Below, one piece after another: positions 8,528 to 9,565 of a DNA stretch of 33,585 nt. Below the pieces are notes generated by a model. That model did no database searches. It was not told where the DNA came from and saw only the letters and a list, made by a program, of their open reading frames with translations. A program made the translations under genes and the position numbers. The stretch comes from a virus (lineage: Duplodnaviria > Heunggongvirae > Uroviricota > Caudoviricetes > Peduoviridae). How positions within the stretch are numbered: the first letter of the stretch is position 1; every line of letters starts with the position of its first letter. The stretch lies in the IMG/VR virus record IMGVR_UViG_3300029650_000190; one strand, given 5' to 3'.

Positions 8528-9565
8528 TTACTTGCGGTTGTTTTTAAAGAAAGCCGGTATCGTTTTTATTATATTCCTAGTCAATTCTGACTCTGATTTT
8601 GCTCTTTCAAGTTCAACAGTAGTTTGCCCTTTATCGAGAATAAAGTTACGCTCTGTTTTGGATAATGACTCAATTGAAGTTCTTAAGCCATCTGGGTTAT
8701 TAGTAATAAATGAAAACTCCACTGCAGCAAGTTTCGACTCGACATTAGTCAGTTCATTTTGGAAGTATTTTATTTCAGCCAGGCCATTTTTATAAAGCCT
8801 CAGGAAGAAATATGCAAAAACCTCTACAAAAACGACTAACATTACTCTTGGGATAATCGGGAGAATTATGTTTTTTATGAATTTATAGTTTGATTCATTT
8901 CCTTCTGAAGCAAGTTGCTTGAGCAATTCAGAAGAATCAACAATCGAAACCGTCGTCCATAGCAAATATAGTCCGCCAGCGGTAATACTCATCCCAATTA
9001 ATAGATTAATATTGGAGCGAAGACGCAAATCTGTTATTTCTCTCCTGAGTCTACGGGTAATGTCATATGACCGTTCAGTTAGTCTTTCAAATCCCAGGCT
9101 ATCTTTAATGCTGTTCCGTAAATTTTCCGCTTCAGTTGCGAAAATCGTTTTGATGGCATCTTGACTTGTTTGCTCTACGGCACCATCTATTATTAATCTT
9201 TTTTCCTCTTCAGTAAGGGTGTTTTTTGACTCATATGATTCAACTTTTTCCCTTAACTCTTTCAGTTGCTCTGTAGTTAACTTTCTTTGGGACTCTAATT
9301 CTTTTAACAATAACTCCAGAGGATGATTTTCATATTTTTCTTCACCTCCTCCAGATTGCAAATAAATAAGTGATAATGAAAAGGCTGAAGCAAGAAGCAA
9401 GGCAATAGATAGAGATGTTCTTGACAACCCTATATTAAGAGTCTCGATTAAAAAATCAAAAAATGGGTTAACAATAAATGACAACAATGAAAATAACCCA
9501 AAGAAAAGCCCCATCAAAAGCAACGTTTTTTTCTTTGTTAATGTTCTAAGTACTATTTCCATCAT
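8528..9565 (-). CDS. Hypothetical membrane protein with about 4 predicted TM helices and coiled-coil segments; cargo gene at the FI-G (Z/fun) variable locus; candidate phage-defence or superinfection-exclusion effector
   Basis: 345-aa ORF, strongly AT-rich codon usage unlike the flanking phage genes; hydrophobic stretches at about aa 14-33, 50-68, 183-205, 228-252; charged heptad-like region aa 80-130 (…LKELESQRKLTTEQLKELREKVESYESK…); GGAAG RBS-like element upstream of the ATG. Confidence 0.7.
   Translation of the reverse strand: MMEIVLRTLTKKKTLLLMGLFFGLFSLLSFIVNPFFDFLIETLNIGLSRTSLSIALLLASAFSLSLIYLQSGGGEEKYENHPLELLLKELESQRKLTTEQLKELREKVESYESKNTLTEEEKRLIIDGAVEQTSQDAIKTIFATEAENLRNSIKDSLGFERLTERSYDITRRLRREITDLRLRSNINLLIGMSITAGGLYLLWTTVSIVDSSELLKQLASEGNESNYKFIKNIILPIIPRVMLVVFVEVFAYFFLRLYKNGLAEIKYFQNELTNVESKLAAVEFSFITNNPDGLRTSIESLSKTERNFILDKGQTTVELERAKSESELTRNIIKTIPAFFKNNRK

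Follow-up and report, generated by a model that had tools for sequence, protein, structure and literature searches.

What kind of gene occupies the interval between the tail genes FI and G of a P2-like prophage, and what might it do there? The question is raised by a 33,585-nucleotide stretch of DNA (IMG/VR record IMGVR_UViG_3300029650_000190, hereafter the window), whose source element is a P2-like E. coli prophage. An ORF with an ATG start and a stop codon at 8528..8530 extends over 8528..9565 on the minus strand and encodes a four-helix membrane protein of 345 aa, with the very limits given in the original prediction. An identical RefSeq locus is annotated alike, the gene being listed as "hypothetical protein" (WP_097341478.1). 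It is flanked by G (tail fibre assembly, 9931..10458) and FI (tail sheath, 6552..7742), both on the minus strand. The proposed correspondence to the Z/fun position is borne out by the P2 reference record NC_001895, in which fun(Z) lies between G and FI with the note [quoted passage not shown]. This G-FI site within the tail genes is a known hotspot and reservoir of defence systems (PMC9122126, PMC13586616, bioRxiv 10.1101/2024.10.15.618418), and the gene belongs to its cargo by position, by the variability of the site among P2-like phages and by its foreign composition. Both the hotspot and this kind of candidate are already known; the protein family itself is uncharacterised.

The AT-rich composition is that of a foreign island, as had been supposed: GC is 0.29-0.40 over approximately 7800-9900 and 0.35 for the cassette as a whole, compared to 0.50-0.58 in the downstream tail genes and 0.41-0.53 in the upstream genes G and H. 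The gene had been credited with its own ribosome binding site, which is present as a Shine-Dalgarno sequence (GGAAG, 9577..9573) 7 nt before the ATG, and probably with its own promoter, for which there is a candidate site only: a sigma-70-like site at 9775..9746 has 10 of 12 matches in a promoter scan, and promoter-like sites in this region are no commoner than in shuffled sequences. Both signals lie in the 5' untranslated and regulatory part of the cassette (9566..9845, minus strand). The approximately 280 bp upstream of the gene show about 70% DNA identity (BLAST) to the region upstream of a Phytobacter homologue; over a somewhat longer stretch that extends into the ORF, the mean column identity of a pairwise alignment is 84%. 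The gene is thus accompanied by a 5' region of its own when it moves.

That the gene is interchangeable cargo was strongly supported. The island is found at G-FI in two of 5,426 complete E. coli genomes; 1,320 of these genomes match the flanks, and all except those two have different genes at the site. Across P2-like prophages the locus holds an HTH protein with an acetyltransferase, an HNH endonuclease, a FlxA-like protein or others. The element also moves as a unit. A cassette of 1.94 kb (7935..9869), comprising one gene, its own 5' region and hairpin boundaries, is 99% identical to one in a different, unrelated prophage, where it lies beside the pao operon, and the identity between the two copies runs exactly from 9869 to 7935. 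The element is a self-contained accessory ("moron") cassette that has been swapped into the Z/fun hotspot.

The cassette is bracketed by a 37-nt inverted repeat, the arms of which are conserved hairpins that also bound many other cassettes; these have the stem GTCCGCT/AGCGGAC and two loop types, TGTGCCA and TGAGCGA. The upstream arm (9842..9878, minus strand), detected by inverted-repeat search and terminator scan, holds the type A hairpin GTCCGCT-CTGTGCCAGG-AGCGGAC (9869..9846), which bounds the cassette on its 5' side and resembles a terminator placed after gene G. This arm has a DNA fold z of -3.8 and recurs in other P2-like prophages with other cargo. The downstream arm (7926..7962, plus strand), detected by inverted-repeat search and comparison with other prophages, holds the type B hairpin GTCTGCT-TTGAGGGAGT-AGCGGAC (7935..7958), which forms the 3' boundary; alone, this arm folds no better than shuffled sequences. 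Beyond it, the stretch upstream of FI (7743..7925, minus strand) is conserved P2 flank, context rather than cargo, with 93-98% identity to P2-like prophages that have other cargo. It corresponds to the P2 pF late-promoter region, where P2 annotation places the pF activator site and transcription start, and contains a terminator-like hairpin at 7861..7847 (terminator scan).

Between the gene and the type B hairpin lies the non-coding 3' part of the cassette (7959..8527, minus strand), 569 nt with no ORF above 35 aa; a longer ORF of 62 aa (7821..8009, plus strand) is mostly inside the conserved P2 flank. A hairpin with 16-nt arms (88% complementary, 8453..8486) directly follows the stop codon, and the RNA fold of the 3' region is marginal (z = -1.8). 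A hidden second gene, pseudogene or RNA was considered here and rejected, there being no such ORFs and no Rfam family. The 569 nt are seen only together with this cassette and, cassette copies aside, had no similarity in the E. coli, plasmid and phage collections or in the fetched loci.

The nearest analogues of the boundary hairpins are integron attC sites and REP/BIME doublets, where short conserved imperfect palindromes likewise delimit interchangeable cassettes of one to three genes, which are found alone or in tandem arrays and at various places in the genome. Integrons have one attC per cassette and a fixed gene orientation, whereas here there are two inverted hairpins with a common stem and two loop types, and both gene orientations occur. 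Neither an integron integrase nor a RAYT-type transposase was found in the annotated regions nearby, and the hairpin sequence is presumably unlike the E. coli REP consensus. A literature search gave no match for the protein accession or the hairpin sequence; Nilsson et al. reportedly argued in 2004 that recombination at the Z/fun and TO regions of P2 is site-specific, and may already have described the boundary stem-loops. The cargo of cassettes with these hairpins includes the validated 3HP system, TIR effectors and HNH effectors, and also dehydrogenases, LysR and MarR regulators, an MFS transporter and hydrolases of the NUDIX and HAD types. Since plainly non-defence genes are included, cassette membership alone does not imply a role in defence.

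A Kyte-Doolittle scan with a 19-residue window finds four hydrophobic segments in the encoded protein (about aa 15-34, 50-70, 186-209 and 239-259). The positive-inside rule suggests an inner-membrane protein whose two ends both face the cytoplasm, in which TM1-TM2 would be followed by a cytoplasmic stretch of about 115 aa that is charged and helical, then by TM3-TM4 and a cytoplasmic tail. The four-TM layout with a charged middle and a charged tail is that originally predicted, except that the tail, put at about 95 aa, is 86 aa long (aa 260-345). The AlphaFold2 model is all-helical and of moderate quality (pLDDT 71, pTM 0.41), and there was no specific fold match for it. Model helices in the charged segment span residues 81-114, 119-132 and 135-208, and two long helices, 135-208 and 226-287, cross TM3 and TM4 and reach the cytoplasm.

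Conservation divides the protein into two halves. In the variable N-terminal membrane hairpin (9356..9523, minus strand; TM1, a short outer loop and TM2), TM2 ends in a near-invariant YLQSG motif; the hairpin is poorly conserved except for Y68 and L69, each at 90% or more, Q70, S71 and G72 being invariant only in the closer set of relatives. The predicted cytoplasmic segment, aa 71-185 (9011..9355, minus strand), is highly charged (21 K+R and 25 D+E; 46 of 115 residues), and its conservation profile runs from a variable, indel-rich coil (aa 71-135) to a conserved basic pre-TM3 helix (aa 172-185, RLRREIxDLRLRSN). The conserved membrane hairpin (8789..9010, minus strand; TM3, an outer loop of aa 210-238 and TM4) has conserved G191 and T195 in TM3 and near-invariant P239, R240 and membrane-embedded E248 in TM4, the most conserved region of all (mean top-residue frequency 0.82). 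The tail (8531..8788, minus strand; 13 K+R, 12 D+E) carries the motifs EIKYFQNELTN and TERNFxLxKGQTTVELE, with invariant and near-invariant columns in the alignments; its residues 312-325 have low pLDDT despite their conservation. The dN/dS ratio is 0.13-0.16 overall, and 0.28-0.30 for aa 1-165 vs. 0.018-0.028 for aa 166-325, the TM3-TM4-tail core, a split with which the conservation profile agrees.

The ORF is not a chance one, because this selection is accompanied by thousands of relatives. A word-index search gave at least 687 homologues, and the family forms at least 2,474 clusters at 50% identity. It spans Proteobacteria, Bacteroidota, Acidobacteriota, Planctomycetota and other phyla, and its members are uniform in length and architecture; the exact protein is found on at least 24 contigs. 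The protein's reported lack of any enzymatic motif is consistent with zero matches in Pfam, NCBIfam, PADLOC and PDB. None of the families in PADLOC-DB 2.0.0 (5,027 defence-protein models, systems up to 2023) matches the window protein, and 77 relatives gave only scattered matches to these models, with E above 3e-4. Homology to a conserved structural or lysis protein, which would have spoken against the original interpretation, was looked for and is absent: the sole PHROG match is phrog_5157, to which PHROGs assigns no function. There was no match to a holin or spanin family, and the position is outside the lysis genes, the holin, endolysin and LysB/LysC genes of the prophage being located elsewhere than at the G-FI cassette. 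A tblastn search of the 345-aa protein against 50,697 GenBank phage records, P2 included, returned no relative. Two Pfam candidates were rejected, UPF0242 as below threshold (22 bits; cut-off 33.5) and DUF2207_C, which matches 12 of the 77 relatives on different protein parts in different members, so that the similarity is an unspecific one of TM and coil.

Relatives of the gene also occupy other sites already known for defence genes or morons. They are found beside P2-type portal and terminase genes, i.e. at the old/tin hotspot (L085, L088, L105), after the primase of a P4-like satellite (L140), on the opposite strand in lambdoid prophages, with a Q-like antiterminator gene on one side and the lysis genes on the other (L099-L101, L109), and just upstream of the holin and terminase genes of a Pseudomonas prophage; closely related copies occur in unrelated elements. 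Immediate neighbours at 73 chromosomal loci include PADLOC matches to PDC-S35, QatA/PifA-like proteins, TIR effectors, a CBASS cyclase, Old, AriA and GajA, an enrichment judged qualitatively, and many chromosomal relatives have metabolic or otherwise ordinary neighbours without a link to defence. There is no conserved partner gene or operon: beyond phage core genes, no neighbour family recurs at 111 loci, and none of 107 Pfam families among 118 neighbours is present in more than two of them. A role as CBASS effector was likewise rejected. PADLOC detects a CBASS cyclase in one of the 118 neighbours, and a motif search assigns this cyclase to L053, where it is followed, 7 nt downstream, by a TM effector of its own.

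The best reading of these results, which we hold tentatively and rate somewhat below an even chance, is that of a standalone, prophage-borne inner-membrane protein with an anti-phage role. The fast-evolving N-terminal half (TM1-TM2 and coil) would recognise a cue of infection, the TM3-TM4 hairpin (E248 buried, P239-R240 on its outer face) and the conserved tail would jointly form an oligomer, and this oligomer would leak ions or depolarise the membrane, whereupon infection would be aborted. Such a role, like the roles originally suggested (superinfection exclusion, an abortive-infection pore or a sensor), would fit the P2, P4 and lambdoid hotspots and the defence-gene neighbours. P2 fun(Z) and old/tin offer a precedent, fun(Z) in the same G-FI slot, as non-essential, AT-rich, separate expression units, but Fun(Z) (NP_046777) has 528 aa, is encoded on the opposite strand and has no sequence similarity to the present four-helix membrane protein (BLASTP best E = 0.77). 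Lambda RexB, the TM effectors of CBASS and Pycsar, and Kiwa KwaA are likewise multi-helix inner-membrane proteins encoded in prophages or defence islands, and membrane leak or depolarisation is the expected action that our candidate would share with abortive-infection membrane effectors. These, however, need a separate sensor or signal-producing partner, whereas the present family stands alone, and 2TM or PycTM models are matched by single family members only (E about 6e-4). Against an anti-phage role count the lack of a functional tie by homology in PADLOC, Pfam, NCBIfam and PDB, and also the moderate model, the non-defence cargo of like cassettes, the non-defence neighbours and the lack of a relative in the genomes of isolated phages in GenBank.

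The same observations can be read differently. A membrane protein of lysogenic conversion or housekeeping, acting for instance in envelope stress, ion homeostasis or as a scaffold, would be generic accessory cargo rather than defence; the occurrence in many phyla and at many chromosomal loci with ordinary metabolic neighbours, the metabolic and regulatory genes of other hairpin-bounded cassettes and the missing homology link to a defence mechanism all suit it. We nevertheless regard it as rather unlikely, given that the gene recurs in P2, P4-like and lambdoid defence or moron hotspots and beside defence genes, and that its spread is patchy, with close copies in unrelated elements, the exact protein on at least 24 contigs and two of 5,426 genomes carrying it at this site. 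Superinfection exclusion, by which an inner-membrane protein of the lysogen would block entry of an incoming genome and the cell would not be killed, is an unlikely reading too, for all that the gene is an expression unit of its own within a prophage, in the position that fun(Z), which blocks T5, has in P2. The protein might, for example, interfere with the channel of tape-measure or ejection proteins or with a host inner-membrane entry factor, and the outer-facing TM1-TM2, which belongs to its fast-evolving part, could keep pace with the varied ejection proteins of phages. Yet about 200 of the 345 residues appear to be cytoplasmic, and constraint is strongest in parts that are cytoplasmic or membrane-embedded, which fits intracellular sensing or action better. 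Known exclusion proteins such as T4 Imm, HK97 gp15 and P22 SieA are mostly small, and the PHROGs and Pfam searches revealed no similarity to such proteins.

The topology also resembles that of MotA, with two TM helices, a large cytoplasmic loop, two further TM helices and a cytoplasmic tail, and the protein could in principle be a distant, partner-less relative of the MotA/ExbB/TolQ/ZorA stators (PF01618) with TM3-TM4 as ion path. The resemblance is weak and register-consistent, comprising a pre-TM helix and a TM with Gly and Thr: three of ten distant members match PF01618 below threshold (12-17 bits; cut-off 22.9) over the pre-TM3 helix and TM3, one member matches the ZorA model (E = 4e-4), and hhalign against E. 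coli TolQ, ExbB and MotA each time aligns overlapping parts of the pre-TM3/TM3 region. The family differs from stators in having no partner subunit, the resemblance has no statistical support, and we consider such kinship very improbable. Homology to MotA/ExbB/TolQ was rejected on hhalign against a 15-sequence alignment of E. coli and plasmid-borne homologues (P = 0.058, probability 0.9%), the window protein itself does not match PF01618, and no adjacent single-TM partner with a conserved aspartate (MotB, ExbD, TolR, ZorB) is recurrent at the 111 loci, the neighbours in the window being G and FI. Least credible of all is that the cassette is decaying or non-functional passenger DNA merely filling the hotspot, as its apparently non-coding 3' region might suggest: the ORF is intact and identical or 99% identical across contexts, strong purifying selection acts on it, and the family is large and architecturally uniform.

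A bolder version of the anti-phage reading, improbable in its two parts jointly, is that the family is a new class of membrane immunity, very widespread and made up of one protein, whose cassettes are exchanged by a novel, dedicated stem-loop mechanism. The protein could then join a sensor half that evolves rapidly to an ultra-conserved module for ion leak or pore formation, its fold differing from those of solved structures, and a discrete cassette may move between prophage, satellite and island hotspots at the conserved stem-loops. The boundary hairpins give base-pair-exact cassette limits, which could improve automated extraction of hotspot cargo, and they may explain the exchange of cargo between unrelated prophages. 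The contrast between a variable N-terminal half and a near-frozen TM3-TM4-tail core suggests how one membrane protein might both sense and act, and E248, P239/R240, the EIKYFQNELTN motif and the TERNF...QTTVELE motif can be named as first targets for mutation. If the anti-phage role is true, a family of at least 2,474 clusters at 50% identity, now labelled "hypothetical protein" and invisible to Pfam and PADLOC 2.0.0, would become recognisable as a single-gene defence.

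The window is a P2-like E. coli prophage. Over the Z/fun interval (window 7743..9930) its sequence equals that of strain LR-58-2 (100% identity), and the RefSeq annotation of that strain lists a complete P2 gene set. The open reading frame (ORF) list places the 345-aa ORF at 8528..9565 on the minus strand, between G, for tail fibre assembly (9931..10458), and FI, for the tail sheath (6552..7742), where the P2 reference genome carries fun(Z), annotated as a gene that blocks T5 when cloned. The original prediction placed the gene at this Z/fun site and regarded it as AT-rich and foreign, and both points hold: over about 7800-9900 GC content drops to 0.29-0.40, compared with 0.50-0.58 for the downstream tail genes and 0.41-0.53 for the upstream genes G and H. 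A ribosome-binding site of its own had also been proposed, and GGAAG is indeed found 7 nt ahead of the ATG; for the likely promoter region suggested with it, the promoter scan gave a promoter-like site (9775..9746).

Hydropathy analysis gives four membrane segments (aa 15-34, 50-70, 186-209 and 239-259), with 46 charged residues among the 115 aa separating TM2 from TM3, and a charged tail. The 345-aa length, the two pairs of helices, the charged segment and the charged tail had all been foreseen; the tail counts 86 aa instead of the roughly 95 expected. Since the ORF, composition, helices, ribosome-binding site and P2 fun(Z) position agree, the earlier description is correct save for tail length, and the finding is real. 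By the positive-inside rule, the N-terminus, aa 71-185 and the tail would be cytoplasmic. An AlphaFold2 model built on a 44-sequence alignment (pLDDT 71, pTM 0.41) is helical throughout, with very long helices at 135-208 and 226-287 that take TM3 and TM4 deep into the cytoplasm.

That the locus exchanges its cargo among P2-like prophages, as had been supposed, is evident from 5,426 complete E. coli genomes searched with the interval: 1,320 matched, and the island is present in two only. In the remaining genomes about 13-15% of the query matched, corresponding to the two flanks, and the alternative cargo comprises a helix-turn-helix protein with an acetyltransferase, an HNH endonuclease, a FlxA-like protein or hypothetical proteins. 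The identical 345-aa protein occurs on at least 24 contigs; the majority of the listed places and their near-duplicates belong to an unrelated myovirus-type prophage adjoining the pao operon, where the gene occupies cargo DNA at the tail-fibre/invertase end. Window 7935..9869 is 99% identical to the copy beside pao and the similarity ends at those positions; in E. coli loci L131-L138 and L263, which adjoin paoD, the slot is at the tail-fibre/pinE end. The element belongs to a familiar class, that of orphan cargo genes, and its hotspot is well known. In the paoD-side prophage the cassette lies downstream of another one, whose 432-aa product has no Pfam or PADLOC match, and in strain 19SZHZ886Rt the paoD slot is occupied by another gene together with a RES-family NAD+ phosphorylase.

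About 280 bp 5' of the gene (window 9566-9846) is approximately 70% identical by BLAST to the corresponding region of a Phytobacter homologue (L004:3824-4105). The block CATTCTTCAATTTyACACA...GCAATAATAAAAAAACATCAT is nearly identical in the two upstream regions, and its Phytobacter version reads TTGCAA-17-TAATAT, likely a promoter or operator common to both. On the 3' side, window 7959-8527 comprises 569 nt without an ORF or similarity beyond the cassette, starting with a hairpin (8453-8486; 16-nt arms, 88% complementary). Its RNA fold is marginal (z = -1.8), and it may be what remains of a decayed gene, an extended 3' UTR or an RNA. The other hotspot of this prophage, between replication gene A and portal gene Q (old/tin site), encodes a 735-aa AAA ATPase (window 25364-27571, plus strand) that matches PADLOC candidate PDC-S06 (E = 3e-254) and is PrrC-like in its C-terminal part.

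That no enzymatic motif had been recognised agrees with the database searches, in which Pfam, NCBIfam, PADLOC and PDB sequences gave nothing significant for the protein; its sole family match is phrog_5157, of unassigned function (E = 1.6e-29). Relatives number at least 687 by word-index search, and an exhaustive profile search gave 2,474 clusters at 50% identity, 907 of them at E < 1e-30, nearly all with lengths of 330-370 aa. The 120 relatives listed with annotation carry no source name other than 'hypothetical protein' and no precomputed Pfam domain. Relatives occur in Enterobacteria, Pseudomonas, Vibrio, Aeromonas and Burkholderia, and more distant ones in Bacteroidota, Acidobacteriota, Planctomycetota, Verrucomicrobiota, Gemmatimonadota and others; 37 IMG/VR contigs encode one, and no GenBank phage genome does. 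Three members of about 467 aa (P0112, P0120 and P0122) have an additional N-terminal 115-120 aa or so before the common four-helix architecture.

The genomic contexts of the relatives point to mobile, defence-rich sites. Some occupy the old/tin hotspot of P2, on its portal/terminase side (L085, L088, L105). Others are found in lambdoid prophages, where they run on the opposite strand between a Q-like antiterminator gene and those for holin and endolysin (L099-L101, L109), in a Pseudomonas prophage directly ahead of holin and terminase genes, in a P4-like satellite past the primase, or in islands bearing UmuDC genes or integrases. Immediate neighbours with PADLOC matches include PDC-S35, QatA/PifA-like NTPases, TIR effectors, a CBASS cyclase, Old, AriA and GajA; at the cyclase locus a dedicated TM effector is present, so the family member there is a separate gene. 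Phage core genes aside, no neighbour family recurs over 111 loci, and no partner is shared, the 118 immediate neighbours at 73 chromosomal loci representing 107 Pfam families, each found in at most two neighbours. In a Pseudomonas MAG (L007:1459-3374) a 65%-identical member lies 25 bp downstream of two overlapping genes, for a 148-aa product with a hydrophobic run in its N-terminal stretch and a 131-aa ThsB-like TIR protein; the arrangement could be a unit of three genes, or no more than a defence island.

Whole-protein dN/dS is 0.16 against the Phytobacter homologue and 0.13 against the P4-like homologue, being 0.30 and 0.28 for aa 1-165 and 0.018 and 0.028 for aa 166-325, respectively. Conservation across 120 relatives is consistent with this split, the mean top-residue frequency being highest in TM4 (0.82) and in aa 301-325 of the tail (0.76) and lowest (0.20-0.28) in TM1, in the coil and in the N-terminal half's outer loop. 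Near-invariant residues include Y68, L69, R172, E176, R183, N185, N187, G191 and T195 up to TM3, and P239, R240, E248, F250-Y258, E264-N274, T304-N307, T316 and E320 from TM4 onward.

According to published work, unknown genes in P2 and P4 hotspots have often proved defensive on testing (6/8 for P4; PMC13586616). The best-supported reading is that of a standalone membrane-acting anti-phage protein. Its variable N-terminal half would recognise an infection cue and its frozen TM3-TM4-tail core would serve as effector, with an oligomeric ion leak via the buried E248 as a plausible mode; these steps go past the architecture, contexts and selection pattern and are put forward as a model. Superinfection exclusion is a live alternative, at a site where P2 carries its T5-blocking gene, and so is a membrane role outside defence. 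A MotA/ExbB relationship is not supported. The topology resembles that of MotA, PF01618 gave sub-threshold matches to the pre-TM3 helix and TM3 in 3 of 10 distant members, one family member matched a ZorA model, and hhalign against E. coli TolQ, ExbB and MotA aligned overlapping parts of the pre-TM3/TM3 region; but with a 15-sequence MotA/ExbB alignment that combines homologues from E. coli and from plasmids, hhalign returned P = 0.058 and a probability of 0.9% over 40 columns, and a MotB- or ExbD-like partner is also absent.

Both cassette ends, 7935 and 9869, fall within a 37-nt inverted repeat (7926-7962 and 9842-9878; arms 84% complementary), each arm of which contains one 24-nt hairpin with the stem GTCCGCT/AGCGGAC. 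The hairpin 5' of the gene (type A) has the loop CTGTGCCAGG, and that 3' of the gene (type B) the opposite-strand loop TTGAGGGAGT, with consensus TGAGCGA. The type A hairpin is degenerate in the Phytobacter copy. Other P2-like prophages have the same arms around different cargo, conservation stopping exactly at their inner edge, and in P2 itself a hairpin of type A follows G at a distance of 60 nt. An exact scan of IMG/VR for GTCCGCT-N10-AGCGGAC found at least 120 stretches; among the matches listed, most have one of the two conserved loop types, TGTGCCA and TGAGCGA. Across the scan matches and further loci analysed, a set that includes L002, L003, L131-L138 and L141-L259, there were 34 A...B pairs, all inverted and spaced 0.6-3.4 kb, which delimit 24 distinct cassettes of 1-3 genes, in both gene orientations, mostly AT-rich and in several flank contexts; L255:1361-4433, L151:6164-7403 and L245 compared with L185 are examples. 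An identical cassette of 1,032 bp is shared by the P2 Z/fun flanks and a second, differently flanked site, the sequences parting exactly at the hairpins.

Where cassettes stand in tandem, the junction consists of a B hairpin, the 18-nt spacer CTTyAGCTCAGTnAyCTn and an A hairpin. This 71-nt doublet (L131:3655-3725) is found in 935 of the 5,426 complete E. coli genomes (17%), at 1-4 places each and in unannotated intergenic DNA in all matches listed; 984 genomes have any match to it. Defence cargo includes the validated 3HP system (Hp1-3), TIR and HNH effectors and PADLOC candidates PDC-S35, PDC-M68A, PDC-S07 and PDC-S33; other cargo comprises dehydrogenases, LysR and MarR regulators, NUDIX and HAD hydrolases and an MFS transporter. 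Compared with shuffled sequences, folding is far better for the A arm and the doublets (z = -3.8 to -4.7) and no better for the B arm of the window. Candidate roles are recombination sites, terminators or insulators, or both. None of the papers searched contains the hairpin sequence; Nilsson et al. (2004) reportedly proposed site-specific recombination at this locus, and may already describe the hairpins.

As its family is large and uncharacterised, the 345-aa protein is a reasonable experimental candidate. The conserved hairpin pair delimiting this and many other cassettes is a more unusual result than the cargo gene itself and merits its own follow-up.
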